From positions 51,141-115,140 of the forward strand of contig CALRHR010000001.1 of NCBI GenBank assembly GCA_943359485.1: a stretch of 64,000 nt of DNA. Direction: 5' to 3'. A model generated the notes under the pieces. That model ran no database searches and was not told the DNA's origin. It worked only from the letters and a program-made list of their open reading frames with translations. Position numbers and translations under genes: made by a program. Shown in pieces: positions 44,518 to 64,000 of the stretch (the stretch's first letter is position 1; the number at the start of each line of letters is the position of its first letter). The DNA is from Candidatus Nomurabacteria bacterium. Lineage in GTDB: Bacteria; Patescibacteriota; Minisyncoccia; Phycocordibacterales; UBA9973.

Positions 44518-44551
44518 TAAAATATGTCAGAGTAATTTATTTTAATTTAAA

Positions 44552-47011: not shown

Positions 47012-47013
47012 CC

Positions 47014-47642: not shown

Positions 47643-47654
47643 ACTTGTAAGTAT

Positions 47655-47760: not shown

Positions 47761-47800
47761 TGAGCTTGTTTGCTTTTTTATAAAAGGTTATAATTAAACA

Positions 47801-48319
47801 ATGTTCTCCGATCCGGTAAAAAATTTAAAAGCTTTGGGGTTGCGGGAGACTGACATTGTGGCGGATTTGGGTGCCGGGACAGGATACTATGCTATTGCCG
47901 CAGGTCACATTGTGACCAAGGGGAAAGTTTATGCAGTTGAAATAGCGGAAGACTTCCTTCATACAATAAAAAATAAAACTAAAGAAGCACATCTCTCTAA
48001 TGTCGAAATTCTCTGGGGAGATGTTGAAAAGATAGGTGGCACAAAAATCGGTGACGGCATTGCTGATGCAGTTATTGCCTCAAATGTGCTTTTCCAAGTT
48101 GAGGATAAAGATGGATTTATTAATGAAACAAAACGAATTTTAAAGCCGAAAAGCAAAGTCTTGCTAGTAGACTGGTCTTCAGATTCTCCACTTATGGGGT
48201 TAAAACATTCCGTACATAAAGACAAAGCACGGGAGATGTTTGAAAAAAAGGGTTTTGTTTGGCAACGGGACATTGACGCTGGAGCGCATCACTATGGTAT
48301 GATATTAATCAAGAATTAA
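47801..48319 (+). CDS. class I SAM-dependent methyltransferase
   Basis: Contains motif I VADLGAGTGYYA. Confidence 0.7.
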   Translation: MFSDPVKNLKALGLRETDIVADLGAGTGYYAIAAGHIVTKGKVYAVEIAEDFLHTIKNKTKEAHLSNVEILWGDVEKIGGTKIGDGIADAVIASNVLFQVEDKDGFINETKRILKPKSKVLLVDWSSDSPLMGLKHSVHKDKAREMFEKKGFVWQRDIDAGAHHYGMILIKN

Positions 48320-48325
48320 TTTGCA

Positions 48326-49624: not shown

Positions 49625-49654
49625 GCTGATCCGCCTTGGGCGGAAAAATCAATC

Positions 49655-50050
49655 ATGAAAAATATAAAAAAAATTCTCATAAATATCACGGCATTCCTGA
49701 TTGTATTTATGTTGCTTGTTACACCAGTATTGTCTTTTGCGTATAATATCAGGGATCCGATAGTGCCACCTTGTCCGGCGACTGGGTGTGGGTGGAATGA
49801 ATTTTTAATGCTTATAAACAATGTAATTTATTTTATTCTGTATGGTTTGGCTATGCCTATTGCTGCCATTATGTTTGCGTATGCCGGAGTTCTTCTCGTC
49901 CAAGCGCAAGGTGGGGAAGCCAAAACTAAAGCCAAAGAAATTTTCCTGAACGCTGTGTACGGCCTGGCCATAGCCGCCGCTGCCTGGCTGATAGTCAAAA
50001 CCTTACTCGCTGTGTTGGGTTACAAAGATGCCGCTTGGATTGGATTTTAG
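49655..50050 (+). CDS. small two-TM secreted/membrane protein, member of paralog array (pilin-like architecture)
   Basis: Signal peptide, a CPATGC pair, then helix, an AKTKAK loop and a second helix. Confidence 0.55.
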   Translation: MKNIKKILINITAFLIVFMLLVTPVLSFAYNIRDPIVPPCPATGCGWNEFLMLINNVIYFILYGLAMPIAAIMFAYAGVLLVQAQGGEAKTKAKEIFLNAVYGLAIAAAAWLIVKTLLAVLGYKDAAWIGF

Positions 50051-50053
50051 TGT

Positions 50054-50482
50054 GTGTATGTTATAATAAAAGCAATGAAATTTATTAAGAAAAATTTTTA
50101 TATCATAGTACTGCTGACTTTTTTGGTTGTTATGCCTATCCTTTCTTTTGCGCAAGCTACGCCTGGCGGGAACCCTATAAGTACACCTGGTGGAAATGCC
50201 GGATGTGACCCCTCGAAGAAAATCTGCAATCCGATAAAAACCGACACCTTAAATGGCTTTATCAGGGCTATCCTTGAAGGCGTCTTCAAGATCGGCTTGC
50301 CTATTTTAGCGTTGGCATTTGTTTTTGTTGGTTTTCTGTTTGTGCAGGCCAGGGGTAATTCGGAAGAATTGACCAAGGCCAAAGATGCTCTGTTGTATAC
50401 TTTAATCGGTGCAGCGGTGATCCTCGGGTCGTGGGCTATCGCACAGCTTATCACTGAAACAGTGACCGCATTAAAACCGTAA
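50054..50482 (+). CDS. small two-TM protein paralog
   Basis: Signal peptide ending SFAQA, a Cys pair, then helix, an EELTKAKD loop and a second helix. Confidence 0.55.
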   Translation: MYVIIKAMKFIKKNFYIIVLLTFLVVMPILSFAQATPGGNPISTPGGNAGCDPSKKICNPIKTDTLNGFIRAILEGVFKIGLPILALAFVFVGFLFVQARGNSEELTKAKDALLYTLIGAAVILGSWAIAQLITETVTALKP

Positions 50483-50517
50483 GGTATGGTTGATTATTAA
50501 TAAAAATAAAAATAAAT

Positions 50518-50820
50518 ATGATGTGTAATCAAGAAGGTTTAATTGAAATGGTGTGTAGGTTGGGTGATCTTTTCAGTATTGTTGTTCCGGTATTAGTGGG
50601 CTTGGGAGTTGTTTACTTTGTCTGGGGTGTCGTTCAATATGTTATTGCTGATGATGTAGAGGCAAAGTCGAAGGGCAAAGACAGGATAATCTTTGGCATT
50701 ATCGGTTTGGCTGTGATTGTTAGTTTGTGGGGGTTAGTGTTCATTCTTACGGATACTTTTTTTGGTGTAGATGCAGGCATGGAAGGTGCCCCTGATTTTC
50801 AAGGTCTACTTCCTGAATAA
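50518..50820 (+). CDS. small two-TM protein paralog
   Basis: Has the core YFVWGVVQYVIADDVEAKSKGKDRIIFGIIGLAVIVSLWGLV. Confidence 0.55.
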   Translation: MMCNQEGLIEMVCRLGDLFSIVVPVLVGLGVVYFVWGVVQYVIADDVEAKSKGKDRIIFGIIGLAVIVSLWGLVFILTDTFFGVDAGMEGAPDFQGLLPE

Positions 50821-50825
50821 AAAAT

Positions 50826-51563
50826 ATGAAAAAATACGCACAAAAAATAGTAAAATTTATTCCAATACTTTTTATTTTAACCTTTGTTCCATTTTTAGTT
50901 TTTGCCCAACCCATACCCCCTTCTGCGCCTTCCGGTTTGGCTGCTGTAATAAATAAAATCAGTGCTTTGCTTAGCTCACTTCTCCCCGTACTTATTTCCC
51001 TAGGAGTACTCTATTTTATTTGGGGAGTTATTATTTATTTTATTGCTGACGATGCAGAGGCAAAGTCGAAGGGCAAAGACAGGATAATCTACGGCATTAT
51101 CGGCCTTGCTGTCATTGTCAGTGTTTGGGGACTGGTTGCCATCTTAAATCAAACTCTTGGTTTGAGTGGGAACTCTGGTTTATCTGGCGTGAGTGCTCCT
51201 TCTAGTATTTCAAATTTGGCACCCTCTTCCAATGTATTACCTTCATGTTCATATATGATAAGTAATAAACCAAAGCTGGCGAATTATCTGGAGTACTTTA
51301 CTTGTATAATTGCTCAATCAGTCATCCCACTTATCTTTGCCATAGCTGTCGTGACCTTTATCTGGGGTGCGGTAAAGTTCTTTATCATCAATGCGGAAGA
51401 GGAAGCCAAAAGAGATCAGGGCAAGCAGTTCATGCTCTGGGGTATTATTGCCCTCGCGGTGATGATCAGTGTTTGGGGTTTGGTCAAAATTCTGGGAGAG
51501 ACCGTGAATATAGATACAAACTATCTGCCTTCAGTTCAGCCGTACAGTTCATCCCGGCCGTAG
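50826..51563 (+). CDS. small two-TM protein paralog with a tandem-duplicated helix-loop-helix module
   Basis: Signal peptide followed by two copies of the module (ADDAEAKSKGKDRIIYG... and NAEEEAKRDQGKQFMLWG...). Confidence 0.55.
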   Translation: MKKYAQKIVKFIPILFILTFVPFLVFAQPIPPSAPSGLAAVINKISALLSSLLPVLISLGVLYFIWGVIIYFIADDAEAKSKGKDRIIYGIIGLAVIVSVWGLVAILNQTLGLSGNSGLSGVSAPSSISNLAPSSNVLPSCSYMISNKPKLANYLEYFTCIIAQSVIPLIFAIAVVTFIWGAVKFFIINAEEEAKRDQGKQFMLWGIIALAVMISVWGLVKILGETVNIDTNYLPSVQPYSSSRP

Positions 51564-51620
51564 CCCTTGCTTTTATTATTAGTATGTTTGTGTTAGAATT
51601 AACAGGTCGTTTATTAATTA

Positions 51621-51700
51621 AGTCAGGTACTAGGTGTTAGGCGCTAGGCATTAGCATAAAATCAAGCTAAAGCTTAAAGTCTAAATTCCTAAAGCCTAAA
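51621..51700. repeat. CTAGGC/CCTAAA hairpin repeat element
   Basis: The arms CTAGGTGTTAGGCGCTAGGCATTAGC and GCTAAAGCTTAAAGTCTAAATTCCTAAAGCCTAAA are imperfectly complementary. Confidence 0.6.
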
Positions 51701-51703
51701 AAA

Positions 51704-52090
51704 ATGAAAAATAAATTAATGGTTTTGTCGGGTTTTGTTATGGGTTTGGTTCCGGTCGTGGCGTTAGCGCAGAATACTGGTGGTACTCCTACTGTGTGTA
51801 CTGCGGGTCCTGTGACAACCTTTCAGGGTGCCTTGTGTAAAATTGGGGAGATTATGAATGCAATCATTCCGATTTTGATAACACTGGGTGTACTGTACTT
51901 TGTCTGGGGAGTTATTTCGTATGTTATTGCTGATGATGAAGAGGCAAAGTCAAAGGGACGAGACAGGATAATCTACGGTATTATCGGCTTGGCTGTTATC
52001 ATTTCTGTTTGGGGATTGGTGAAGATTTTGTCAAATACTTTTGGGCTTACAAATGTACAGCAAATTACTTTTCCGACTGTTTCTTACTAA
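51704..52090 (+). CDS. small two-TM protein paralog
   Basis: Signal peptide and a Cys pair, then the core YFVWGVISYVIADDEEAKSKGRDRIIYGIIGLAVIISVWGLV. Confidence 0.55.
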   Translation: MKNKLMVLSGFVMGLVPVVALAQNTGGTPTVCTAGPVTTFQGALCKIGEIMNAIIPILITLGVLYFVWGVISYVIADDEEAKSKGRDRIIYGIIGLAVIISVWGLVKILSNTFGLTNVQQITFPTVSY

Positions 52091-52140
52091 TCTATAAAGT
52101 GTCGCACCAAGAATCGTGCGACATGATTTCGTAAAATCAC

Positions 52141-52488
52141 ATGAATTTATTTCTCGGTCTTTTCTCTGCCAGGGTGGCTTATGCGAGCGTTGATACCTTT
52201 ATGAATAGCGTAGGCGAGCTTATCATAAATCCGCTCATCAATTTTCTTTTTGCTCTAGCGGTGGTGTATTTTCTGTATGGCGTGTTTGAATTTCTGTCCA
52301 ATCAGGAAAATGAAGACAAGAGAACAGCCGGCAAGAGCCACATGCTTTGGGGAATTGTCGGCATCACCATCATGATGGGTGTGTGGATCATCTTTGGTCT
52401 TATTCTGGACACTTTTAACTTAAGAGGTGACATAGATGTCAGTTCAGGAGGGGTTATAAATGTGAAGTTGCCACCATACAATCCTTAA
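52141..52488 (+). CDS. small two-TM protein paralog (divergent)
   Basis: A helix, an ENEDKRTAGKSHMLWGIVG loop and a second helix. Confidence 0.45.
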   Translation: MNLFLGLFSARVAYASVDTFMNSVGELIINPLINFLFALAVVYFLYGVFEFLSNQENEDKRTAGKSHMLWGIVGITIMMGVWIIFGLILDTFNLRGDIDVSSGGVINVKLPPYNP

Positions 52489-52624
52489 TAGAGAATTCAT
52501 CTCAAGAGAATAAATTCAAATTAGAGACATAAAAAGGGCGACTTCGCAAAAGCGAAGTCGCCCTTTTAGGTTCTGGAGTCAGTTTACTTTGCACAGCATA
52601 GATCTTTTGTGGTATACTGCAACT

Positions 52625-52855
52625 ATGAAAAATATCATTCAATTTTCAATCGAAAAAGGGCAGGATGGGTATTACATTGCTACAGCAAATGATTTTGCTA
52701 TTATTACCCAAGCGAAAAATTTAGAAGATTTGTTTGTAAATATTAAAGAAGCCACCGAGCTTCACTTTGAAGAAATTTTAGAAGAAGAAACATCTCTGAG
52801 CCGCAATCCTTCAATTTTTATAAACTACGAAATGCCTATCGCGCTCTATGCCTAA
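52625..52855 (+). CDS. hicB: HicB-family antitoxin
   Basis: UPF0150-like over IEKGQDGYYIATANDF...IKEATELHFEE, and it overlaps hicA. Confidence 0.6.
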   Translation: MKNIIQFSIEKGQDGYYIATANDFAIITQAKNLEDLFVNIKEATELHFEEILEEETSLSRNPSIFINYEMPIALYA

Positions 52856-53090
52856 ATTAAAGCGACTTTCTGGCAAAGAAGTCATAACTTTTTGTGAACA
52901 ACACAATTTTAGTATCAGTAGACAGAAAGGAAGCCATATTAATTTGGTACGAATTGTTTCAGAGAAAAAACAAGTGGTGACCGTGCCAAATCATAAAGAA
53001 ATAGACAGAGGAACATTGCATAATATTTTCAAGAAACTGTCTTCATTCATTCCTGAAGAAGATTTAAGAAAATTTTTCTTTACTGACTAG
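52848..53090 (+). CDS. hicA: HicA-family toxin (mRNA interferase)
   Basis: LKRLSGKEVITFCEQHNFSISRQKGSHINL matches the HicA KGSH motif. Confidence 0.65.
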   Translation: MPKLKRLSGKEVITFCEQHNFSISRQKGSHINLVRIVSEKKQVVTVPNHKEIDRGTLHNIFKKLSSFIPEEDLRKFFFTD

Positions 53091-53102
53091 GTAAAATCAA
53101 AA

Positions 53103-53160
53103 AGGCGGTCGTTCATCGCTGAACGGGTCCGCCTTTTGTTTTGCGCGTGGGGCTCGCACG
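53103..53160. terminator. bidirectional terminator hairpins
   Basis: AAAGGCGGTCGTTCATCGCTGAACGGGTCCGCCTTTTGTTTTG, plus a second hairpin CGCGTGGGGCTCGCACGCG. Confidence 0.6.
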
Positions 53161-53248
53161 CGCGATGTTTTCATGAGCCCTCCTTTCTCCGAAGTTGATC
53201 TGCTTCGGGCAGAGACCTTCTTTGCGCTGGTCAGGCGCTCCGAGAGAA

Positions 53249-54253
53249 TTACTCCCGGATGTATACACCTGTGGCTGGGGTTGCCCCCTCGCCACAGAAC
53301 TTCCAGATCCCCGCCATCCCGATGGACGGCGGGGGGGTGGTGCCGAAGGTCTCTGTATGAGATCCTCCGTCCGGGTCAAACACCTTCATGGAGCCCCGAT
53401 CGGGACCCCACTGGCTGTTGATCCGTAGGTTCCGTTCGTAACAGCCATCTGTTCCGAACGGGTAGAGGGTGGGTGTCGGCCCTACCTTCGCGGGCGCCGG
53501 GGCTGTCGAGGCCACCGGCGTGGATGTCCGGCTACCTGCCGGTGAGGGGGGTGCGGGAGGTAACAATCCCCCAAAAAATCCACCCACTGTCTCCCGGATC
53601 TCGGTCCCGACCCGTTGGGCTACTTTGTCGCCGACTACAGCCTTTTTTGCTGTGTCGATAGCCACTGGGCCGATGCCGCGCCCCTCGGATGCCGCCTGAT
53701 CTGCTTCCTCCCACTTCGTCGTGGGGGCGGGAATCGCGGGGACCGTCATTGGCGTCGCCGACTTCGGCCGAGCCATCTCGGCCGATCGTGGCATTTCCCT
53801 TGCCACGAAAAGGGAAATCAACACTATTCCGAAGATGGTGAGCGCTGGCTTCACTCGGCCGTGTGCCGTCATTGCGGCGATCACGACCGAACAAAAAAAC
53901 AGCGCTACCCAAATTAAGATATCCGTACTGGCTGTTGGGTATAGCCATGGGCGTGGTCCCGTGGTGAGAAAGTAGCTGAAGGCGAAGTTATTGCTAACTC
54001 CGACAACAGTAGTTCCCACCATCATGACGAATGTAAGCGTAGAGAACCCGACGATGAATTTCTTCATTCCATCGGAAATTCCGCCGCCGTGTGCCGCCGC
54101 GGGTCGCGAGAGGCCGCCCCAGCCTTGGTGCTGGGCCAGCTTGTAAAGGCCGTACAGCACTCCGCCGACGATAGCGACGGTCCAGGGGTTCCAGCCGAAT
54201 GAGCTCGACACCCAATACACTCCCAGGGCCGCGATTGCAAATTTCCAAAACAT
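53249..54253 (-). CDS. polytopic membrane protein with Pro/Thr-rich extracellular C-terminal region (GC-rich island gene C)
   Basis: Several predicted TM helices and a high-GC codon bias. The leader repeat lies immediately upstream. Confidence 0.55.
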   Translation of the reverse strand: MFWKFAIAALGVYWVSSSFGWNPWTVAIVGGVLYGLYKLAQHQGWGGLSRPAAAHGGGISDGMKKFIVGFSTLTFVMMVGTTVVGVSNNFAFSYFLTTGPRPWLYPTASTDILIWVALFFCSVVIAAMTAHGRVKPALTIFGIVLISLFVAREMPRSAEMARPKSATPMTVPAIPAPTTKWEEADQAASEGRGIGPVAIDTAKKAVVGDKVAQRVGTEIRETVGGFFGGLLPPAPPSPAGSRTSTPVASTAPAPAKVGPTPTLYPFGTDGCYERNLRINSQWGPDRGSMKVFDPDGGSHTETFGTTPPPSIGMAGIWKFCGEGATPATGVYIRE

Positions 54254-54254
54254 T

Positions 54255-54600
54255 TCATTTCTTCCTTAACTCCGTCCCCTTGACTGGGCAACATGGAGTT
54301 GGAGCAGACTGATCAGAGTACTACAACCGCTTGCGCGTTTGTCTTACTTTGAATAGTCTGCCCGCTAGGAAGCCGGATTTTTTCTCTCCTCTCCTTACCC
54401 CCTCCGCTTTCAGCACCTCCCCCTAAATAGGGGGAGGCCGGGTAGGGGTACAAAGGGGTGAGGGTTCAGCTACATGGCGGGCAAACCATTCATTTTGCTC
54501 GAAATTCTACTTACTTCTTATTTAATTTTCGAAGGTCAGCTTTACCTATGTATTGTATCACACTTATGACAAAAAGTCAAGCCCTTTGGGCTGAATTTGT
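54255..54600 (-). promoter_or_regulatory. ~310-bp AT-rich leader, copy 1: near-consensus sigma-70 promoter plus structured 5' UTR
   Basis: On the minus strand the promoter reads TTGACT-N17-TACAAT (about 54560-54590). The leader has a conserved P1 hairpin UCGAAAAUU...AAUUUCGA and a closing helix UGCCCG/CGGGCA around a variable GC-rich core. It is duplicated at 56190-56500. Confidence 0.6.
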
Positions 54601-54783
54601 CCTTATTTTGTAAGGTTAAAATGATAAAAGGGCCGCCTCAGTGAAGAGACAGCCCTTTGTTTTGCGCTGGGCCTGTGCGCGATTTGGGCCCTGGGTTGAC
54701 GAGTCCCCGTTGCGTCACTCTGGTTTGTTCCCTCCAGACGGGAGACCTCTATTTTGTAAGCGCTGGTCAGGTGCTTTGTCTTT

Positions 54784-55281
54784 TTAGGGGCAGTACCGGC
54801 TTGCCCCCTCTTCGAGGGGGTTGAACGGCCGTTTCTTCCCGTCCTCCCCGACGATCTCGTCGGGGCAGCCGAATTTCTTGTGTTTGGGGGTCCCTACCCC
54901 CAGAATTTTGTCGACGGCCTGGTCGAGCGCTTGCCCGACAGAGACCGCCGACTTGCCGTCGCCGAGTCCAAGACTCCCGAGGACCTTGTTGATCCCCTCG
55001 AGGGCCGCGTTCCCGGCGGTCTTTCCGATCTCAAGCGCGCGCCGATTGCGCAGCGCGCGGGCCTTGGCTAGAATCGTCGGAGTGCTGTCCTCCGGATGCG
55101 CCTCGAGCCAGGCCAGCGTCTTGCTGGCCCCGTCATAGAGCGCCTTCGCTCCCTCGATTGTTGTAGCGGCTGGAGCCTTCTCCAGAGCCGCCACTTTCTG
55201 CGCCATTTTTTCTTGTCGGCTGGCGCCACAACCGACCGCCGTGAGTGCCACGGCGAGCACGAACGTCAAGAGGAAATTCAT
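54784..55281 (-). CDS. putative lipoprotein (GC-rich island gene B)
   Basis: The signal sequence MNFLLTFVLAVALTAVGC has a lipobox-like Cys, and a strong GGAGG SD lies upstream. The region is high-GC. Confidence 0.5.
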   Translation of the reverse strand: MNFLLTFVLAVALTAVGCGASRQEKMAQKVAALEKAPAATTIEGAKALYDGASKTLAWLEAHPEDSTPTILAKARALRNRRALEIGKTAGNAALEGINKVLGSLGLGDGKSAVSVGQALDQAVDKILGVGTPKHKKFGCPDEIVGEDGKKRPFNPLEEGASRYCP

Positions 55282-56153
55282 TTCTTCCCTCCCCCTCCAA
55301 ACATTCCCTTGACTATCCACTCCAGGGGCTGGGTGACTACCTCACCCAGGGAGTGTTTGGCGGCCAACTCCCCAATGCCGCCAATCTTCCATTTCCTAAT
55401 ACCCCCGAGGACCTCGTCCCAACGGGAGCAGACGATGGCTCCGACGAGCGCTATCATCTGCCACCCGAGAACTCCCCACCCCATAGCCTTCTCCCCGAAG
55501 AGAAACGAGTTAATGGTTGCCCAAAAACCGAATTCCCCCAGGGGATCCTCGAGCGGAGTCGTTGCCACAGCCCAGAACTGGGCTTTGGCGATTTCGATGG
55601 GGTTTAGGGTTGCTGGCGCCGCGGTAGGGTCCACCCACCACAAAAACACCACCCCTAACACCATCCACACCGTCGTGCGAAGTACCCAGTTGTTGTCGCC
55701 GAGCCGGATCAGGACACTCCGCCCGATCTCCGCAGCCCCACGGCCGTGAGTCTCGATTCCCGCGAAGATGGCGAAGACCGCGAGCGTGGTCACGAGGGCA
55801 ACTAGCGTAAAGGCTGGGTAGCCGAACCAAAAACCGAAGACGATCCAGTAGAGTACTATGAACAGCGCCCCCCAGAATCCCACGGTCTTCGGCTTGATCA
55901 CTACCTCGCCTTCGTCGCAAGCGCCATCGCCTACGACTTCGGCCCTAATGATGTGTCGTCCCGGTTTGAGGTCTTTGAGCTCGAAGCTCGCGACCCCGCC
56001 TTCCGTCTTTACGGCGCGCTTGCGCTTGCCGTCGACCGAGAAACGAACCTGGACTTCTTTCTCGCCACCTTTTTTCCCGGCGGTGGCCGGCCGGTCTGAC
56101 ACGACGGCTTCCGCCACCGTGTCTTTCTCTACTAAACTCAAAGTCAAAATCAT
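55278..56153 (-). CDS. membrane protein with N-terminal soluble beta-rich domain (GC-rich island gene A)
   Basis: Starts MILTLSLVE after an AGGAGA SD, has several TM helices and shows high-GC codon bias. Confidence 0.55.
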   Translation of the reverse strand: MILTLSLVEKDTVAEAVVSDRPATAGKKGGEKEVQVRFSVDGKRKRAVKTEGGVASFELKDLKPGRHIIRAEVVGDGACDEGEVVIKPKTVGFWGALFIVLYWIVFGFWFGYPAFTLVALVTTLAVFAIFAGIETHGRGAAEIGRSVLIRLGDNNWVLRTTVWMVLGVVFLWWVDPTAAPATLNPIEIAKAQFWAVATTPLEDPLGEFGFWATINSFLFGEKAMGWGVLGWQMIALVGAIVCSRWDEVLGGIRKWKIGGIGELAAKHSLGEVVTQPLEWIVKGMFGGGGKK

Positions 56154-56189
56154 TATCTTTCTCCTAATCAAATTTTTTCTCGAGCACAC

Positions 56190-56500
56190 GATTCAGAATA
56201 CTACAACCACTTGCGTGTTTGTCGTTTCCTGAATAGTCTGCCCATCAATGAGCCGATGCATTTCCTCTCCCTGCGAAGGGGGAGATTTGAGAGGGGGTCT
56301 CAAGAATTACCACCCCTAGCCCCTCCTTAATCAAGGAGGGGAGGAAACATAAAATACTCAGCTTCTTAACGGGCAAACCATTCATTTCCCCGCCAGTCTG
56401 GCCGGGGTAAATTGCTCGAAATTCTACTTACTTCTTATTTAATTTTCGAGTAACAGCTTTACCTATGTATTGTATCACACTTATGACAAAAAGTCAAGCC
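56190..56500 (-). promoter_or_regulatory. ~310-bp AT-rich leader, copy 2
   Basis: About 100 bp are near-identical to copy 1, including TTGACTTTTTGTCATAAGTGTGATACAATACATAGGTAAAGC, and the same P1 hairpin and closing helix are present. Confidence 0.6.
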
Positions 56501-56626
56501 TAAATGCTCCAAAACAGCCTTATTTTACAGGCTATTTTGGGGCATTATTGACATTAGTCTTGTATTGTGTTTTTAAAAAAGTCTATAGTTCTTGTCTTAA
56601 TCTAATTCAAATGATATTATATAAAT

Positions 56627-56857
56627 ATGAACACCGTAACCTTACCCAAAAATCAATACATGCAAATTTTAAGCACTCAAGACAAATTTCAAGTGGATTT
56701 GTCTCGCTTGGAGAGAATGGTTTCTTATATGGTTCAAGATGAAGTTAGTCCGGTGTATATGACCAGACTTTCTAAGATAGAGAAAGGTCTTTCCGCTGGC
56801 AAAGGTGTTAAGTTTAAAAATAAAAGTGAACTCAAAAAATTCTTTCGTTCTTTATAG
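56627..56857 (+). CDS. putative antitoxin partner of a RelE/ParE toxin
   Basis: 76 aa ORF sitting 2 nt upstream of the toxin gene. Confidence 0.45.
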   Translation: MNTVTLPKNQYMQILSTQDKFQVDLSRLERMVSYMVQDEVSPVYMTRLSKIEKGLSAGKGVKFKNKSELKKFFRSL

Positions 56858-56859
56858 TT

Positions 56860-57144
56860 ATGAATAATTTAGAGAAGATGAATTTTATTTTTTCTCTGGA
56901 ATTTAAAAAAATTCTAGAGAAAATGGCAAAGAAAGATAAATTAGGATTAAAAAAAATAGAAGACCAAGTATATAAAATAATCTCTAATCCACTCATAGGT
57001 AAACCTCTTCGTAATGTTATGAAAAGTTATCGACGAGTTCATATAGGGCATTTTGTTTTGATTTATAAAATAGAGAACGGAGAGATAACATTTGCAGATT
57101 ATGACCATCATGATCGCATTTATAAAAAATATTCTCTAACCTAA
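56860..57144 (+). CDS. RelE/ParE-family toxin
   Basis: KPLRNVMKSYRRVHIGHFVLIYKIENGEITFADYDHHDRIY is a RelE/ParE signature. Confidence 0.65.
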   Translation: MNNLEKMNFIFSLEFKKILEKMAKKDKLGLKKIEDQVYKIISNPLIGKPLRNVMKSYRRVHIGHFVLIYKIENGEITFADYDHHDRIYKKYSLT

Positions 57145-57145
57145 T

Positions 57146-58057
57146 ATGCTACTTTCTGCCATCATCACAATAATCGGCCTCTCGCTCTTTGAAGCAGTTT
57201 CTTCGGTTGACAATGCCATCATCAATGCGGAAGTTCTCTCGACCATGGGGGCCAAGGCACGGCGCTGGTTTTTGACTTGGGGGATGTTCATTGCGGTCTT
57301 TCTAGTTCGCGGGCTTTTACCTTTTGCAATAATCTGGGCTTTTAATACATCTCTCTCACCACTCCAAGTTTTATCTGCGGCCTGGTCTTCAGATCCGCTC
57401 GTTTTGGCGTCCATAGAAAAGTCCGCGCCGATACTCCTCGTCGCCGGGGGAGTTTTCTTGTTATTTTTATTTTTGCATTGGCTTTTCTTGGAAGAAAAAC
57501 ATTTGGGTTTGCCTATGGCAGAGAAATTCTTTATGAAGAATGGGGTTTGGTTTTATGCCACTGTATCAGTCCTTCTTTCAATTATCGCTTGGTTTGCATT
57601 AAAGGAGAGCAACCTGATGGGCTTTGGTGCTGTTGTTGGTTCCAGTTTATTTTTTATTACGCATGGTTTCAAGCAAAATGCCGAGGAGCAAGAAAAAAAA
57701 CTGCTCGGGTCGGCACACTCTGATCTCTCCAAGCTTTTTTTCTTGGAAATAATTGATACTACATTTTCTATCGATGGTGTGCTCGGCGCTTTTGCTTTTA
57801 CTCTTTCGGTGCCACTCATTCTGCTTGGCAATGGTTTCGGAGCGCTCTTGGTGCGGGAGCTGACGATTCGCAATATCGAACGAATAAAAAAATATGTTTA
57901 TTTAAAAAATGGGGCGATGTATTCCATTCTGGTTTTGGGGATGATTATGATACTGCACAGCTTTGGGTTTCACATACCGGAATACGCTTCGCCACTTTCT
58001 ACTTTTATCATTATTGGATTCTTTTTTTGGAAGTCGCGAAAATCGTTGCAGGTGTAG
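57146..58057 (+). CDS. TerC/DUF475-family integral membrane protein
   Basis: The EAVSSVDNAIINA motif (ExxLSxDNA) occurs near the start of a polytopic membrane protein. Confidence 0.5.
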   Translation: MLLSAIITIIGLSLFEAVSSVDNAIINAEVLSTMGAKARRWFLTWGMFIAVFLVRGLLPFAIIWAFNTSLSPLQVLSAAWSSDPLVLASIEKSAPILLVAGGVFLLFLFLHWLFLEEKHLGLPMAEKFFMKNGVWFYATVSVLLSIIAWFALKESNLMGFGAVVGSSLFFITHGFKQNAEEQEKKLLGSAHSDLSKLFFLEIIDTTFSIDGVLGAFAFTLSVPLILLGNGFGALLVRELTIRNIERIKKYVYLKNGAMYSILVLGMIMILHSFGFHIPEYASPLSTFIIIGFFFWKSRKSLQV

Positions 58058-58093
58058 TTTTTGAGAGGCCTTTCGCAGGTCGTTCGACTCTGA

Positions 58094-58127
58094 GAGTCTC
58101 AGACTCGATGAGCCGACGGGCCGAGAA
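58094..58127. repeat. 32-nt repeat TCGACTCTGAGAGTCTCAGACTCGATGAGCCGA (copy 1)
   Basis: Contains the palindrome TCTGAGAgTCTCAGA. A second copy lies at 59657-59689. Confidence 0.6.
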
Positions 58128-58200
58128 GTTCGCTCCGCAAGCTTGCGGAGACAGATTGCCTATCAAAAACTATACCAAGAAAGATTTTCACAACTAAAAC

Positions 58201-58230
58201 AAAAAAATCCCCGAGCGGGGATTTTTTTGT
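58201..58230. terminator. bidirectional rho-independent terminator
   Basis: AAAAAAATCCCCGAGCGGGGATTTTTTTG. Confidence 0.8.
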
Positions 58231-58235
58231 TTCGG

Positions 58236-58745
58236 TTATGCATGCTTTAGGGGTGTGTCGTGATAGTTTTGCTCTCCGCGGAATACCCTCCTAACTAAGA
58301 TGACTATCAAGAGAATTAATATCGCAAGAAGAATCCATTGAACAAGCCCAGAAGGCATGAAACTATTTGAACCATAGATGACATTGGCAGCAAGTTCTTT
58401 GACATCTTCCGCAGTCTTGACTGGTTCGTCGGCAGTAGAAGTTGTGGCAACTTTGTTCGTAGCAGGCGCTGCTTTTCTCACGGTAGTCGTAGTGGTAGTT
58501 GCCTGTGGAGCATAAGCGTTAGTATTTCCTGAGTAAATAGTAGGCGCGTCGGAATACTCAGTATTAGTATTTACTCCCGCAGAATTGTCTCGTACAGTAG
58601 CCCACTTAGTGCTGTTGTAAGGGGTAACATACCCGGCTCTGTCGGCACTTGCTTCTGTGGGTACAAACATGACCCCTAGAGCCAAAATAGTGAATGCTTG
58701 TAAGCCATAAAATGCTATATTTAATTTTTGATTATATTTATTCAT
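58236..58745 (-). CDS. membrane-anchored surface protein, Thr-rich
   Basis: Has an N-terminal signal/TM segment and a C-terminal TM anchor, with a poly-Thr stretch. Confidence 0.5.
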   Translation of the reverse strand: MNKYNQKLNIAFYGLQAFTILALGVMFVPTEASADRAGYVTPYNSTKWATVRDNSAGVNTNTEYSDAPTIYSGNTNAYAPQATTTTTTVRKAAPATNKVATTSTADEPVKTAEDVKELAANVIYGSNSFMPSGLVQWILLAILILLIVILVRRVFRGEQNYHDTPLKHA

Positions 58746-58783
58746 ACTTATAGTATAGCATATATAAAAACAAATGTCAAGTT

Positions 58784-59653
58784 TTAACGGCTCCTGCTGC
58801 CACCTTGAGGATTTCGACGTCCTGAAGAACTGTCAGCACTGCGAGTTTGCGGAGAAGTAGTAGTTCTTTCTGCTCCTCCCGTTCCTCCTGTTGTTCCCAT
58901 TGTGCCCGTTCTTGCCTTTGTTCCTGTGCGTGCGGGGCTCCCAGTGTGTCCAATGCTTCCAGTGTGTCCGGTGTCCACTCGATTTCGAATCACTCCAGGT
59001 CTATATACAACTCCTCGGCTTCCATAACCACTCCTATGAATGATCACTGGACGAGAAGCGTCTGCTTGTTTCTTTGCAACACCAGCTGCAATTTTAGCTA
59101 ATTTCTCGTCATGTTTTAATTGCGCCTTTGTTTTTTCGCTAGTTGTTAATTCAGATATCAAGTTGCCATCAGCATCGTACTTTCTTTTTAAAGCACCTCT
59201 TCCGGCAGCTACTTTTTCAGTATTAGCTGTGGTAAAAAGTTTTTCATCGTCTTCTTGAGTTCTAGATAATTTTTCTTCATCTTCATCTTCAGCTTTAGCT
59301 ATTTCTACATCCGCTTTCGCCAAAGCAAGTGCCTTTTCAGCTGCTTGAATATCAGCTTTATTTTCTGGATCTTCCTTAGCAACACTAAGGTCATAGGTAG
59401 CTTCCACAACAGCTTTTTCAGCTTTAGCAATAGCTGCCTTACTTGCTTGCATTTCTGGAGACAAAAAAGTTCCTGCTGCTATGGCGGCAGTAGCGAATTT
59501 TCTTCCAATTCCGCTATGATTATTTTTAGTTCTTGCTATTTCTCTAGCCCTCAGCTCTGAAGCTGTTAACTCCGTAGTTCCTTCTTCTGGAATAAATTCA
59601 CGTCTAGAACCTCCTATATTTTCCATTCCCATAGTATTTTTAGTTTCAGCCAT
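58784..59653 (-). CDS. low-complexity Ala/Lys/Glu-rich protein with Gly/Thr/Arg-rich C-terminal tail
   Basis: 289 aa with no signal peptide, containing repeats TGHTGSIGHTGSPARTGTKARTGT. Confidence 0.45.
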   Translation of the reverse strand: MAETKNTMGMENIGGSRREFIPEEGTTELTASELRAREIARTKNNHSGIGRKFATAAIAAGTFLSPEMQASKAAIAKAEKAVVEATYDLSVAKEDPENKADIQAAEKALALAKADVEIAKAEDEDEEKLSRTQEDDEKLFTTANTEKVAAGRGALKRKYDADGNLISELTTSEKTKAQLKHDEKLAKIAAGVAKKQADASRPVIIHRSGYGSRGVVYRPGVIRNRVDTGHTGSIGHTGSPARTGTKARTGTMGTTGGTGGAERTTTSPQTRSADSSSGRRNPQGGSRSR

Positions 59654-59656
59654 AGG

Positions 59657-59689
59657 TCATCGACTCTGAGAGTCTTAGACTGATGAGCT
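59657..59689. repeat. 32-nt repeat TCGACTCTGAGAGTCTTAGACTGATGAGCTGA (copy 2) in the 5' UTR of the 58784-59653 gene
   Basis: Matches the 58094-58127 copy. Confidence 0.6.
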
Positions 59690-59810
59690 GATCCGCCTTT
59701 GGCGGAAATTATTAATAAATTAAACTTTCCTAAATTATACTTTATATTGCAAGATTTTACAACCTTATACTAAGATAAGTGTATTATGGTATATAAAACC
59801 TTTTTGTCAA

Positions 59811-59895
59811 TGGTGCTGGAGGGGGGACTCGAACCCCCAAGCCTTGCGGCACTAGTTCCTAAGACTAGCGCGTATACCAATTCCGCCACTCCAGC
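59811..59895 (-). tRNA. tRNA-Leu (anticodon UAG)
   Basis: Cloverleaf with a long variable arm, anticodon loop CUUAGGA and an encoded CCA end. Confidence 0.8.
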
Positions 59896-59953
59896 GTCTT
59901 TTCAAATATACTTCGTATTTGAAATTTCGATTCACGAAACCGACGCTGGAGTG

Positions 59954-59985
59954 TCGGCCTCCTCACTTTGTTCGGATGAAAAATA
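59954..59985. terminator. perfect 14-bp hairpin GGATGAAAAATAAA-GCAG-TTTATTTTTCATCC
   Basis: Lies downstream of tRNA-Lys on the minus strand. Confidence 0.5.
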
Positions 59986-60035
59986 AAGCAGTTTATTTTT
60001 CATCCACTCCAGCTTCTAAAGTGCTCATGCACTTT

Positions 60036-60110
60036 GTGCGTCCAGAAGGGATCGAACCTTCGACCTTATCCTTAAGAGGGATCTGCTCTACCAGCTGAGC
60101 TATGGACGCA
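60036..60110 (-). tRNA. tRNA-Lys (anticodon CUU)
   Basis: Acceptor stem TGCGTCC/GGACGCA and anticodon loop CUCUUAA. CCA is not encoded. Confidence 0.75.
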
Positions 60111-60251
60111 AATATATTCAATTTTAAAACAAGACTTTACCATTAATAATCTTTCGACCTACCAAAACAGCTATGGACGCAAATATATTTAATTTTTAAA
60201 CAAGACTTTACCACCAACAATCTAACGATTTACCAAAACAGCTAAGGGCGC
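60097..60251. repeat. tandem ~72-bp duplication that includes the first 14 nt of tRNA-Lys and its upstream region
   Basis: AGCTATGGACGCAAATATATT...CCAAAAC occurs twice, followed by a third partial copy AGCTAAGGGCGC. Confidence 0.7.
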
Positions 60252-60291
60252 ATGTTTAATTTTCTAAAATAATTACAAATTTATAATTATT

Positions 60292-60376
60292 CTGGTGCTC
60301 GGGATGGGAGTCGAACCCATACCCCTTACGAGATTCGATTTTAAGTCGAACGCGTATACCAATTCCGCCACCCGAG
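60292..60376 (-). tRNA. tRNA-Leu (anticodon UAA)
   Basis: Long variable arm, anticodon loop CUUAAAA and an encoded CCA end. Confidence 0.8.
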
Positions 60377-60570
60377 CAGTTGTCTAAGTCTAACTGAAAA
60401 AAGTATTTTTTTCAATCCCTATTTACAGATTACATATCAGGTTATATAATATTCAGATGAGTATGGAAACTTCCGATCCCCAACTATCATTAGGAAATTC
60501 TGAGCTCTTGGAAGACCTAAAGTCACTCGTTGCTAAAAGATTATAAAAAATGAGATAGTATATTATTTAT

Positions 60571-61089
60571 ATGTCGGAAAAACTATTCAAAAGTGTCCCT
60601 AGTGCAGTTATTGAGAGAACTGAAATGGGTATGGTGGGACAAGTAAGAGAACTCGTAAGATTGATTCTTTGGGATAAAGTTCTGCGCGATAAACTTGTAG
60701 ACAATCCAATTGGAAAAGAAGGTCTGGATGCACTCAAGAGGCTCGGCAAAAATTTTTCTATTGTTCTTGCGGATAGTGTCCCCGTCTTAGGATCCGTTGT
60801 TCATTGGAGTGCAGATGTCTTAAAATTATCAAAACATGATGCAACTCCGGATGTTTCCAAATTAACAGCATGGGGAGCAAATATAATTGATGTATTAACT
60901 CTTGATACTATTCCCTCATATTGGATTCAAGCAGCTCTTCAATTGAGAAAAGATCTACCTAAGCTTCAGGCATTATTGAAACTTATTCAGAAGATACGCA
61001 CAGAAGAGATGGAAGATTATGAGGAAAATCAATCTCAAGTTGATGGTGCAATAAGAGTTTTTGGCACCGAAGAAAGAGATGAAAAATAA
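60571..61089 (+). CDS. hypothetical protein
   Basis: 172 aa ORF. Confidence 0.45.
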   Translation: MSEKLFKSVPSAVIERTEMGMVGQVRELVRLILWDKVLRDKLVDNPIGKEGLDALKRLGKNFSIVLADSVPVLGSVVHWSADVLKLSKHDATPDVSKLTAWGANIIDVLTLDTIPSYWIQAALQLRKDLPKLQALLKLIQKIRTEEMEDYEENQSQVDGAIRVFGTEERDEK

Positions 61090-61092
61090 AAT

Positions 61093-61323
61093 ATGGATAA
61101 AAAAGAAGCTTTAAAAATACTTATAGAACACAGTTTTGTCTTCACTAAAGATGTGCAAGAAAAATTGATTGCGGGTATTCCCGCTATGACTTTGCGAGAT
61201 GTTGATGCTCTGGGCAAGCTTTTAGCGTCACTAAAACAAAAGAGTATTATTTCTTATGATGCTGACATGAAGAAAATAAATCAAATGATTTTGGTGGTTG
61301 AAAAAGAAAAGGGAAGTGTCTGA
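61093..61323 (+). CDS. hypothetical protein
   Basis: 76 aa ORF starting immediately after the preceding ORF. Confidence 0.4.
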   Translation: MDKKEALKILIEHSFVFTKDVQEKLIAGIPAMTLRDVDALGKLLASLKQKSIISYDADMKKINQMILVVEKEKGSV

Positions 61324-61341
61324 TGTTTTTCTGTTTCTTTG

Positions 61342-61413
61342 AGGCGTGGGTGGGAATCGAACCCACGCATGTCGGTTTTGCAGACCGAAGCGTTACCATT
61401 TCGCCACCACGCC
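61342..61413 (-). tRNA. tRNA-Cys (anticodon GCA)
   Basis: Acceptor stem GGCGTGG/CCACGCC and anticodon loop CUGCAAA. Confidence 0.75.
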
Positions 61414-62133
61414 TTTTAAATGAAAATCGATTATTTTTCTAATTTTCCTATCAACAACCTTTGGTCGTAATTCAAAGTAGTTATTGAATATTTTAAATTT
61501 TCGCATAAAAAATGAATTAATGCTAGTGCCTTTGTATATTAGTTTGAATATTTGTAGAGAATCTTTTGTGTTGTATATTGCTTGGAAAGATCTCTTACTT
61601 GAATAAATTTTACCTTCTTTAATCCCAATTTTTCTAAAAACATGATTCATTTTTTCAAGAAATATTTTACTACCACTAGTAAATATCACACGAACCCTTT
61701 TTATTATTAATTTTTGGGTTTTACCTTTGGTTTGTGCAAAGTGAACACATCCATCTCCATCAAAATATCCCCTCATAAAATGACCTAAGTATTTTTGTGG
61801 AACTTTTGGGAACTTTATAGTTAGAGATTTGTTTGGATATAGACCTAATCTAAAAAGGTCATTGTATATTTTATGACTACCTATTCTTAACGCAAAGCAA
61901 ACTTTTCCTCTGATAAAATTCGACCTTTTCTGGTTTGTTTTGTGTTCTGAACCCAACCATGTTTTTATTCTTTCTATGGAATCTTTATCTGTGCTAGCTA
62001 TTTGGATATATTTACCACGCATATAAGGTGAATCATCCAAACTTCCATCAGCATAAATATATCCCAAAACATAGGCCATATTCGGGGACCATTTTTCGAA
62101 GAATTTTTCATTAACTTTATATTTTATTCCCAC
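61393..62133 (-). CDS. LAGLIDADG-family homing endonuclease (two-motif, single-chain)
   Basis: Two LAGLIDADG motifs are present (LGYIYADGSL and MRGYFDGDGCV). The last 7 codons GGC GTG GTG GCG AAA TGG TAA coincide with the 5' end of tRNA-Cys on the same strand. Confidence 0.75.
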   Translation of the reverse strand: MGIKYKVNEKFFEKWSPNMAYVLGYIYADGSLDDSPYMRGKYIQIASTDKDSIERIKTWLGSEHKTNQKRSNFIRGKVCFALRIGSHKIYNDLFRLGLYPNKSLTIKFPKVPQKYLGHFMRGYFDGDGCVHFAQTKGKTQKLIIKRVRVIFTSGSKIFLEKMNHVFRKIGIKEGKIYSSKRSFQAIYNTKDSLQIFKLIYKGTSINSFFMRKFKIFNNYFELRPKVVDRKIRKIIDFHLKGVVAKW

Positions 62134-62173
62134 TTTTATATTATAAGTGGTAATTAATTATACTGCAACTTGA

Positions 62174-62494
62174 TTACTTTTCTCGTAGCAATTCGTCAAT
62201 TTTTTGGCGGTTTTTTTCACCCAGATCAATGGCAATGTCGACAAAGGGGATGGTCTTGACGGGCATGTTTTTTTTCAAGTATTCCCGCAGTTCTGGTCTT
62301 TTGCGTTTGGCAAATTCTAGCGCGGTTTTTTCTTTTGAATCTGGAAGTACTGTAATAAATATCGTTGCCCGTTTTAAGTCGGGGGAACAGGTGGCGGCTA
62401 TCACGGTAATAAGTGAAGTTTTATTGTTTTCTCTTCCCAAAAAAATTGCCGCTAATTCTTTTATTTGATTTGCAACTTTATTATTTCTCTCCAT
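62174..62494 (-). CDS. rbfA: ribosome-binding factor A
   Basis: Matches RbfA over LITVIAATCSPDLKRATIFITVL, and sits directly downstream of infB as in the nusA-infB-rbfA operon. Confidence 0.7.
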   Translation of the reverse strand: MERNNKVANQIKELAAIFLGRENNKTSLITVIAATCSPDLKRATIFITVLPDSKEKTALEFAKRKRPELREYLKKNMPVKTIPFVDIAIDLGEKNRQKIDELLREK

Positions 62495-62521: not shown

Positions 62522-64000
62522 TTATTTCTGCGCCACACTAAATAATTCCACGACATCACCCGCTACGATTTCTATTTTAGATTCTACCATCATGCCAAAT
62601 TCCTTTCCCTCGGATACTTCGCTGGTTTTCATTTTACCTTGTTCCAAGTTTACGATTTTTCCACGACCGATTTCGAAATCTCGACGCATGATTTTAACCG
62701 TTCCATTTAGAACCATGGTTCCCTCGATTACTTTTCCGCCAACGATTTGGCGCTCGCGGGTTCGACTGAAAGCTCGGATGATCTTTGCTTTGCCAGTTGT
62801 TAACATGGTTTCGATCCTCGGCCGGCGGTTTTCCATTTCGACTTCCAGCCACTCGGTCAGTTTATAGATAATATTAAATAAGTTAATCCGGAGGCCTCTT
62901 TTTTGGGCAAGTTCTGTAGCATTTTTATCTATTTTGACATTGAAGCCAATAACGATGATGTTTCCACTGTCGGAAATATTTTTTATGTCTGATTCGCCGA
63001 TAGTTCCTACGCTCTTACTAATGATTTTAAATTCTGCTCCCTCGGTTTTTATCTTTGCTATTTCTTTTTCGATGGCTTCGAGAGTCCCGGAGACATCGGC
63101 TTTTAATATTATTGGAATTATTTTTTTTGTTGATTCTGTTTCGCGAGTAGAAAGGTCAGACCTTTTTGAATTCTCAAGGTCAGACCTTGGGGAATTATTT
63201 TTTATATATTCTTCGGCATCTTTTTTATTTTGAAAAGATTTAAAGATTGCTCCAACTCTCGGCATTTTGTCGAAGCCGACAATCCGTACCGGGGAAGACA
63301 TGGAGACAGAATCCATCATACTCCCTTTGAAATTTTCTATGATGCGCGTGGAGCAGATACAATCTTCTACCACAACCGTCATTCCTTTTTTCAAGGTTCC
63401 ATTTTTAACAATTAGCGTCGCCACGATTCCACGCTTAGAATCCAAATTTGCTTCAATGACGACTCCGGAGGCAGCTTCATCGATATTTCCAGTAAAGTTT
63501 TCCATCTCGGCCATAATTAAGATAAGTGACAGGAGGTTATCCACTCCTGTGCCTGTCTTTGCAGAAATTTCTACGCACGGGATCTTGCCACCATAATTTT
63601 CCAGATAAATTTCTTTTTCTACTAATTCTGTTTTTGTTTTTTCTACATTTGCGCCTGGCTTGTCTATCTTGTTGATTGCTACGATGCACACAGTGTTGCT
63701 TTCATTTATAGTTTTCCAGGCTTCCAATGTCTGTGGCTTGACGCCATCTTCTGCAGAAACTACCAATATTGCGATGTCGGCCACGGCTGCTCCGCGCTCG
63801 CGCATTTTCGAAAAAGCTTCATGGCCAGGTGTATCTAGAAAGGTGATTTTGCGACTAGCAAAATCATCCCGAGATTTTCGAGGGATAGCTCGATTCACTT
63901 CGTTCTCTCGGGATTTCGGTTCCTCTTGAGGAACCTCAACTTCATAGGCAGAAATATTTTGAGTTATGCCACCGATTTCACCTTCTGTCACATTTGTTTT
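62522..64000 (-). CDS. infB: translation initiation factor IF-2 (C-terminal part; gene continues beyond window)
   Basis: Has G-domain motifs ([12 protein letters not shown]) followed by domains II to IV. The track's first Met lies inside the G-domain, so the true start is upstream of position 64000. Confidence 0.9.

Follow-up and report, generated by a model that had tools for sequence, protein, structure and literature searches.

A probable mobile LAGLIDADG homing endonuclease gene that abuts the 5' end of tRNA-Cys in Patescibacteria

Homing endonuclease genes (HEGs) can occur outside introns and inteins, and here we describe a candidate of this kind in a 64,000-nt stretch of DNA from a Candidatus Nomurabacteria bacterium (contig CALRHR010000001.1). 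This stretch is referred to as the window, and all coordinates are positions in it unless a locus from another genome is named. On its minus strand, an open reading frame (ORF) with two LAGLIDADG motifs lies between rbfA and the gene for tRNA-Cys(GCA) and ends inside the latter. A first-pass annotation had proposed this arrangement, which is borne out by the ORF list, Pfam, ARAGORN and Rfam. The locus is organized as follows:

61393..62133, minus strand: LAGLIDADG ORF, 246 amino acids, GTG start, two motifs, free-standing (ORF list and Pfam)
61341/2..61413, minus strand: tRNA-Cys(GCA) (ARAGORN; Rfam RF00005, 69.5 bits, model positions 1-71)
61393..61413, minus strand: 21-nt overlap of the two, in which tRNA positions 1-21 are the last 21 nt of the ORF
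62140..62168, minus strand: upstream element, TTGCAG-17 nt-TATAAT, 6 nt before the GTG of the endonuclease ORF
62174..62494, minus strand: rbfA (Pfam RBFA, PF02033), the upstream flank of the insertion
62522..63991, minus strand: infB, encoding IF-2 (from the ORF and synteny in relatives), used below as a host marker

The tRNA-Cys gene is intact and contiguous, with a U discriminator and no encoded CCA (ARAGORN, Rfam), and genes for tRNA-Leu(UAA), tRNA-Lys(CUU) and tRNA-Leu(UAG) are found downstream of it (ARAGORN). Within the overlap, the codons GGC GUG GUG GCG AAA UGG UAA are read as G V V A K W stop, with the UAA located in the D-loop. The earlier claim that the final seven codons of the ORF are the first 21 nt of the tRNA is thus confirmed, the seven consisting of six sense codons and the stop.

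LAGLIDADG homing endonucleases carry out site-specific double-strand cleavage of 14-40-bp targets. Several lines of evidence assign the ORF product to this superfamily. The Pfam family LAGLIDADG_3 (PF14528) matches residues 118-196 of the ORF with 46.6 bits (cut-off 22.5; E=4.3e-12), PHROG 4645, an endonuclease, is matched at 1e-42, and both motifs are present in the ORF, as YVLGYIYADGS (motif 1) and RGYFDGDGC (motif 2). Across 45 homologues aligned over their full length, no variation is seen at D29, G30 and D125-G128, which include the acidic residues that bind metal in both motifs. The N-terminus, MGIKYKVNEKFFEKWSP, is likewise conserved among these 45 homologues, and the GTG is therefore the true start. 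An AlphaFold (AF2) model built from the 45-homologue alignment (predicted local distance difference test, pLDDT, 88.7; predicted template modeling score, pTM, 0.87) has a tandem LAGLIDADG topology, with its secondary-structure elements in the order expected for a tandem alpha-beta-beta-alpha-beta-beta-alpha fold. The pLDDT of the model drops below 50 only at residues 241-246, which are the tRNA-encoded tail and are predicted to be disordered. The closest solved structure is I-Tsp061I (PDB 2DCH; sequence E=6e-4; Foldseek E=3.7e-11, TM 0.55/0.64), and the top 50 Foldseek matches in the PDB are all of the LAGLIDADG fold, comprising homing endonucleases, engineered variants, a homing endonuclease-associated intein and the bI3 maturase. 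The LAGLIDADG assignment is thus validated by Pfam, by the invariant catalytic aspartates, by the AlphaFold model and by the top Foldseek match to I-Tsp061I, and we conclude that the product very probably retains nuclease activity, as opposed to being a degenerate derivative.

A protein search with the endonuclease returned 2,483 matches, the best 120 of which are all at least 51% identical to it, and the near homologues all come from Nomurabacteria, Paceibacterota and related metagenome-assembled genomes (MAGs). With one genome considered per species, at least 351 GTDB species carry a relative, and among those listed all are Patescibacteria, spread over many candidate lineages. A phage origin or carriage was considered and rejected, as viral contigs hold only distant relatives (<=39% identity), none of which adjoins a tRNA.

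We compiled a census of gene neighbourhoods for the best 80 of the at least 351 species-level loci, at 43-82% identity to the window protein (individual loci fetched from relatives' genomes or metagenome contigs are given L-numbers). ARAGORN placed a tRNA-Cys(GCA) at -24 to +90 nt from the ORF end in 76/80 of these loci. Two more, L064 and L072, have tRNA-Cys at the same offset, making 78, and the remaining 2/80 stop at a contig edge, such that all informative loci (78/78) abut tRNA-Cys. Because the juxtaposition is found at every informative homologous locus, it lies far beyond what chance would produce. The position of the stop codon is more variable: it is inside tRNA-Cys in 51 loci (at 18 nt in 31, at 21 nt in 9, and at 7-23 nt in the others) and 0-24 nt ahead of tRNA-Cys in 21, while in 4 loci the ORF reads through the entire tRNA. 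Tight abutment to tRNA-Cys, and not the exact overlap, is therefore the constant feature, and the overlap is more likely a by-product of tight packing than a selected device. A regulatory role for the exact overlap was considered and judged unlikely, given that the stop lies ahead of the tRNA in 21/76 members and that disorder is predicted for the tail.

The genes upstream of the ORF are infB-rbfA in approximately two thirds of the loci and other genes in approximately one third, and tRNA-Leu(UAA) is nearly always found downstream. In all of L001-L011 the ORF ends 18 or 21 nt inside tRNA-Cys, including L010, where the upstream gene encodes a 3D-domain protein and is not rbfA. Since the upstream contexts differ, tRNA-Cys is the only sequence common to all sites. 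The partnership is also visible in the proteins: homologue C-termini are mostly GHVVK (GGC CAC GUG GUG AAG UAG) or GVVAKW, and some tails are a translation of the whole tRNA-Cys (...SAK...GANP...), so that protein sequences alone reveal the tRNA. These three kinds of ending bear on annotation, in that gene callers shorten such ORFs or extend them through tRNAs.

To find sites without the gene, we queried metagenome contigs with the window rbfA, a search that is independent of both the endonuclease and the tRNA. Among the 80 closest rbfA relatives (74-88% identity; about 74 of them informative, with a handful too short to score), the endonuclease ORF is present only in L104, L120 and L122. Approximately 70 of the roughly 74 informative relatives have an empty site, at which rbfA is followed after 11-270 nt by tRNA-Cys and then by tRNA-Leu(UAA), tRNA-Lys(CUU) and tRNA-Leu(UAG). 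The first-pass annotation had suggested an insertion at a tRNA-proximal target site; because empty sites are this abundant among close relatives, the insertion is indeed tRNA-proximal and, moreover, polymorphic. Its limits can be read from a comparison of a filled locus, L122, with an empty one, L112, whose tRNA-Cys genes are 100% identical whereas infB and rbfA are only 77-81% identical. In their alignment, identity resumes 3 nt before the tRNA +1, with AAT directly before the +1 in both, and the insert therefore spans from just after the rbfA stop to the +1.

Several copies of the gene have decayed. L104 has lost the upstream element with its promoter and 11 codons, in L047 the N-terminal 100 amino acids are missing and the C-terminal half follows rbfA as a fusion, and in L072 a nonsense codon replaces that of the invariant W15. 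Pairwise identities of the endonuclease are only weakly correlated with those of IF-2 (Spearman 0.21, 41 loci), and some pairs of loci are strikingly discordant, with L017-L020 sharing 83% identity in the endonuclease vs 52% in IF-2, and L075-L089 sharing 64% vs 82%. Sporadic presence, decay and discordance together form the signature expected of a HEG and exclude a conserved host function. We conclude that the ORF is a homing endonuclease gene, free-standing and mobile, with the 5' flank of tRNA-Cys as its specific site, a reading to which we assign a probability of about 0.8.

What is inserted is a cassette, comprising a promoter-like upstream element and the ORF, which has neither a stop codon nor a terminator of its own and lies flush against the tRNA-Cys +1. 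At every filled locus, whatever the upstream gene, the start codon is directly preceded by TTGCAGTAT-N6-T(T/A)ACCAC(C/T)T, usually followed by ATAAT. The window holds a single copy of this element, with a perfect -10 hexamer (TATAAT), a 17-nt spacer and 6 nt to the GTG, a layout suggesting that the endonuclease mRNA may be leaderless or nearly leaderless.

Read as its reverse complement, AAGTGGTAA-N9-CTGCAA, the element reproduces two parts of the common tRNA-Cys allele, the D-loop (positions 13-21) and the anticodon loop (positions 32-37), with the same 9-nt spacing. The two blocks are found at exactly this spacing in 53/70 loci. Scored against tRNA-Cys positions 11-44, a position weight matrix (PWM) of the element reaches 17.5, compared with 12.6 +/- 0.8 for column shuffles (z=6.4), none of which attain the observed score (0/5000). 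The three neighbouring tRNAs yield null-level scores with the same profile, and the match is thus specific to tRNA-Cys. Across the loci of the rbfA set, a pattern derived from the element matches nothing except filled loci and, as reverse complement, genuine tRNA-Cys genes, and this pattern search found no solo elements at the empty sites of the set. We also looked upstream of the cassette for a remnant of the tRNA-Cys 5' end, as would be expected if insertion took place inside the tRNA with replacement of its 5' part, and found none.

The two-block motif spans 24 bp, a size and layout as expected for a monomeric LAGLIDADG site, in which two contact regions surround a less specified centre. 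The perfect motif is present in 38/69 HEG-less tRNA-Cys alleles vs 0/9 alleles of close relatives with an intact HEG (p=0.002), and in 1/76 HEG-linked alleles phylum-wide. The alleles of close relatives with an intact HEG read AAATGGTAA, AAGTAGCTAA (one base longer) or AAGAAGTAA. The tRNA-Cys of L104, where the HEG is decayed, carries the perfect motif.

Two further observations concern the tRNA-Cys alleles. L003, a strain variant, has two tRNA-Cys genes (6714-6788 and 4721-4795 of that locus), namely the linked allele (GGCGTGG...) and an empty-site-type allele (GGCCTGG...) at the far end of the cluster, while L001, otherwise near-identical to L003, has only the endonuclease-linked one; this pair of alleles suggests that the endonuclease came with its own tRNA-Cys allele. 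Among the 114 unique tRNA-Cys sequences of all fetched loci, a tertiary pair covaries with three exceptions: D-loops with G18G19 are paired with T-loops starting with UUC (49 sequences, the window copy being of this GG/TTC type), and D-loops with A18G19 are paired with T-loops starting with UGC, in which G55 replaces the near-universal U55 (57 sequences).

A similar architecture occurs at a second tRNA gene. Between tRNA-Lys and tRNA-Leu(UAG), several loci carry an ORF of a second LAGLIDADG family, 216 amino acids long and 27-30% identical to the window protein. These tRNA-Leu(UAG)-linked ORFs are located, in the coordinates of each locus, at:

L099, 3870-4520
L116, 3721-4371
L118, 5418-6068
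L121, 3850-4500
L123, also with such an ORF

The second family has a promoter-like sequence of its own, TTGGCA-17-TATAAT-6-ATG, and its ORF ends 22 nt inside tRNA-Leu (...ILGEWRNW-stop), with the UAG in the D-loop. The element upstream of its ORF, ATTGG(Y)ATA(Y)GC, agrees at 11/12 positions with the D-arm of the tRNA-Leu allele found without a HEG (ATTGGTATACGC), whereas all five HEG-linked tRNA-Leu(UAG) alleles read ATTGGTAGCCGC instead. We found 575 homologues of this family at E<=1e-20, many of which have tails that are the translated 5' end of tRNA-Leu (WRNW, GQVA..., GWRN). That the architecture has been repeated independently at tRNA-Leu(UAG) is the strongest argument for its being a strategy and not an accident.

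From the match between element and tRNA, and from the distribution of alleles, we tentatively place the target inside the tRNA gene and regard the upstream element as a candidate binding site, a placement to which we give somewhat under even odds. A number of observations weigh against it. The window tRNA-Cys is itself one base off the motif (AAATGGTAA). The tRNA-Cys genes of L122 and L112 are identical, and the tRNA allele alone would thus not explain immunity, unless both are resistant (D-loop AAGAAGTAA). The association with alleles is confounded by phylogeny, the HEG-less alleles and sites all coming from one clade, that of the rbfA relatives. The -35 hexamer of the element is weak, matching at 3/6 positions, and the site is absent from the output of a promoter scan. 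The element also differs between lineages, in some of which it has the opposite orientation with respect to the ORF or is not followed by TATAAT, although inversion in a few lineages would fit a protein-binding site better than a simple promoter. Two signals that could have accompanied a target in the tRNA were also sought and rejected. There is no sign of an arms race, as tRNA-Cys is no more variable than its neighbours (mean pairwise identity 0.854, compared with 0.878 for Leu-UAA, 0.896 for Lys-CUU and 0.802 for Leu-UAG), and the correlation of identities by which co-transfer of the allele with the HEG was assessed is too weak to be of use, with a tRNA-Cys rho of 0.14 for the HEG vs 0.03 for IF-2.

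The target could alternatively span the junction, the site consisting of the AT-rich spacer and the first ~10 nt of tRNA-Cys and being destroyed by the insertion, with the element serving only as a promoter and its likeness to the tRNA having no bearing. The identical tRNA-Cys genes of L122 and L112 would then pose no difficulty, as immunity need not come from the tRNA allele, and the AAT that directly precedes the +1 in both loci, as well as the fact that LAGLIDADG genes usually lie at their own cleavage site, agrees with such a junction target. However, the spacer of empty sites is highly variable in both length (11-270 nt) and sequence, and upstream genes differ by lineage, which leaves ~10 conserved bp for a 20-22-bp site. 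A junction target would also leave unexplained why the element matches tRNA positions 13-37 with exactly their spacing and why the tRNA-Leu family shows a parallel match, and we consider it possible but doubtful.

Mobility itself can also be questioned. The LAGLIDADG protein could have been domesticated and be passed on vertically, serving the host in connection with tRNA-Cys, be it as a maturase or chaperone, as a regulator, or as provider of the promoter of the tRNA operon, with co-transcription keeping the genes adjacent. Such a protein would be at home with a mean pairwise identity at least as high as that of IF-2 (50% vs 44%), with the widespread gene order infB-rbfA-ORF-tRNA-Cys-tRNA-Leu, and with a cassette promoter that probably drives the tRNAs too. 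Yet the ORF is missing in ~95% of the closest relatives, whose tRNA-Cys is normal, and these empty sites largely refute domestication; the truncated and nonsense copies and the discordance with IF-2 argue against it as well, and the catalytic aspartates never vary, which sets the family apart from derivatives of the WhiA type and from many of the maturase type. We therefore hold domestication to be very improbable. That the ORF belongs to a group I intron or an intein, or is a mis-assembled or chance juxtaposition in a MAG, can for practical purposes be dismissed, for although LAGLIDADG genes of Patescibacteria are usually described in rRNA insertions (PMC11270868) and group I introns occur in their tRNA genes (PMC13011429), the tRNA-Cys is contiguous and full length, stop codons lie upstream of the ORF with no flanking extein, no intron RNA family turned up in the window, and the same junction recurs in dozens of independent assemblies.

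Returning to the mobile homing endonuclease gene as the preferred reading, we propose the following mechanism. The enzyme would make a double-strand break in HEG-less tRNA-Cys loci, and repair from a HEG-carrying copy would insert the cassette, as in homing, with the donor DNA presumably obtained by DNA uptake. With lower confidence, the enzyme would recognize a stretch of the tRNA gene that reaches from the D-loop to the anticodon loop and lies ~25 bp from the insertion point, making this a case of intronless homing. Under an in-tRNA and a junction-spanning target alike, an ORF tightly linked to the break would be favoured by selection and would thereby be pushed up against the tRNA +1, as far as the first in-frame stop, which the D-loop provides (UAG/UAA). 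The inverted tRNA-like element, lying over the cassette's own promoter, would be a putative binding site for autoregulation. A transcript from this promoter would extend into tRNA-Cys and the tRNAs beyond it, and the RNase P cut at the tRNA +1, 18-21 nt before the stop, would then take the stop off the mRNA and yield a non-stop message. As the sequence stands, it is plausible that RNase P processing defines the 3' end of the endonuclease mRNA, as had been suggested earlier, and a non-stop mRNA made in this way may limit the level of the enzyme.

A more far-reaching and, in our view, unlikely interpretation is that the cassettes are natural cleave-and-rescue-like drives on essential single-copy tRNA genes. 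They would cut the region from the D-arm to the anticodon arm, repress themselves via the promoter mimic, and travel with a cleavage-resistant functional tRNA allele, including alleles in which A18:G55 replaces the near-universal G18:U55. If this were true, the design would have evolved at least twice, at tRNA-Cys and at tRNA-Leu(UAG), and may explain the rearrangements and tRNA 5'-fragment scars seen in the tRNA clusters of Patescibacteria.

The tRNA cluster of the window had also been described as containing duplicated tRNA fragments, and these are real. Positions 60098-60252 hold a 71-nt tandem repeat (2.2 copies, 86% match), each unit of which begins with nt 1-12 of tRNA-Lys(CUU) on the minus strand, the duplicated segment being the tRNA 5' end and its upstream spacer. 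The first 9-10 nt of tRNA-Leu(UAG) (GCTGGAGTGG) are copied at 60004-60013 (minus strand) and, inverted, at 59945-59953 (plus strand). These GCTGGAGTGG copies lie in the spacer between tRNA-Lys and tRNA-Leu(UAG), which is the position of the second LAGLIDADG family in relatives.

Fragments and rearrangements are also found in the relatives. A conserved pseudo-tRNA-Cys 5' half of ~55 nt, composed of GGCCTGGTAGCCAAGTGG, a ~20-nt insert, ATTCCTCTG and a GCAGAGG hairpin, occupies the spacer between rbfA and tRNA-Cys at the empty sites of L092, L097, L099, L117, L121 and L127, and is found at those of L135, L137, L154, L155 and L163 as well, L154 having two copies in tandem. Changes in it are mirrored in the functional tRNA-Cys downstream, and its breakpoints are inside both blocks of the putative endonuclease motif. 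An Rfam search with this element from the empty sites matched no family; a repair scar, an attenuator and a decoy are all conceivable explanations. The four-tRNA cluster that follows rbfA is often inverted or reshuffled (L093, L102, L115, L119, L133, L135, L140, L146, L156, L158, L164 and L166), such that tRNA-Cys or the whole cluster is on the opposite strand, or the order is changed.

Downstream of tRNA-Cys, the window has a long spacer with two ORFs on the opposite strand:

60293..60377, minus strand: tRNA-Leu(UAA), ~960 nt from tRNA-Cys here, the usual distance in relatives being ~100 nt
60571..61089, plus strand: ORF of 172 amino acids in the spacer between tRNA-Cys and tRNA-Leu(UAA)
61093..61323, plus strand: ORF of 76 amino acids in the same spacer

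Pfam and PHROG searches gave no match for either spacer ORF, and L001 has a different ORF, of 269 amino acids, in their place. The two, the endonuclease gene and the window tRNA-Cys allele may have been acquired jointly. Elsewhere in the window, an ORF of 289 amino acids beside the tRNA cluster (58784-59653, minus strand) has a low-complexity C-terminal region rich in Gly, Thr, Ser and Arg and no Pfam match. The 16S rRNA gene (22266-23911, plus strand) is 1646 nt long vs the 1533 positions of its model, and the ~110 extra nt are possibly a small insertion of the kind common in rRNA genes of the candidate phyla radiation (CPR).

Homing endonucleases are normally tolerated since a self-splicing intron or an intein hides them in the target gene. 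The family described here, which is large (at least 351 species-level genomes and ~2,500 database proteins) and apparently undescribed, instead parks at the 5' end of one tRNA. Its members are potential meganucleases with long recognition sites, probably within tRNA genes. Through them one could examine how minimal genomes accommodate a selfish nuclease alongside an RNA gene that is essential and single-copy, and also test whether such elements are linked to the unusual variants of tRNA-Cys and to the rearranged tRNA clusters seen in Patescibacteria.

Compared with known systems, the window enzyme resembles archaeal rRNA-intron enzymes of the I-Tsp061I/I-DmoI type in being a single chain with two LAGLIDADG motifs, each with a catalytic acidic residue. 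Unlike I-Tsp061I, which is encoded in an rRNA intron and to which it is only 19% identical, it is free-standing beside a tRNA and has ~45 additional C-terminal helical residues (189-239). A closer parallel in lifestyle is provided by SegB, SegF and SegG of phage T4, which reportedly undergo intronless homing, in which the gene lies beside its target and a break in the HEG-less genome is repaired from the carrier. Homing of the Seg genes is said to co-convert nearby markers, and SegB is said both to lie in and to cut a tRNA gene cluster. The Seg enzymes are of the GIY-YIG type and reside in phage genomes, whereas the window family is LAGLIDADG, is found in cellular genomes and has a fixed tRNA partner; unlike in T4, its ORF runs into the tRNA and is preceded by a tRNA-mimicking element, and cleavage near the insertion is, for the window family, a prediction. 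Autorepression has its own precedent in I-TevI, which reportedly represses itself via an operator resembling its homing site. The window cassette would likewise place a homing-site-like sequence over its own promoter, to judge from the sequence, with an enzyme of a different family.

Free-standing LAGLIDADG ORFs of fungal and algal organelles, which are often near tRNA genes or fused to neighbours, are likewise intergenic in compact genomes, and their transcripts are punctuated by tRNA processing. No fixed partnership with a single tRNA and no stop supplied by a D-loop have been reported for these organellar genes, and the window family is bacterial. The LAGLIDADG endonucleases described from CPR rRNA genes are encoded within insertions or introns of the 16S/23S genes (Tsurumaki et al. 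2024, PMC11270868). These share the phylum and the superfamily of the window protein, and target-specific homing into highly conserved RNA genes has been proposed for them in that work, which has no mention of tRNA. A 2026 survey found HNH genes in tRNA-Asn introns of Patescibacteria and reported no LAGLIDADG gene by tRNA-Cys (PMC13011429). In the literature that we could search, we found no description of a LAGLIDADG gene adjoining a bacterial tRNA, only the organellar cases and the papers on CPR rRNA and tRNA introns. The fold family itself is ordinary, and free-standing LAGLIDADG genes are already known, mainly from organelles. What appears to be new is that a free-standing LAGLIDADG family of bacteria is tied to one particular tRNA gene, together with the shared stop codon, the tRNA-mimicking upstream element and the recurrence of the design at a second tRNA.

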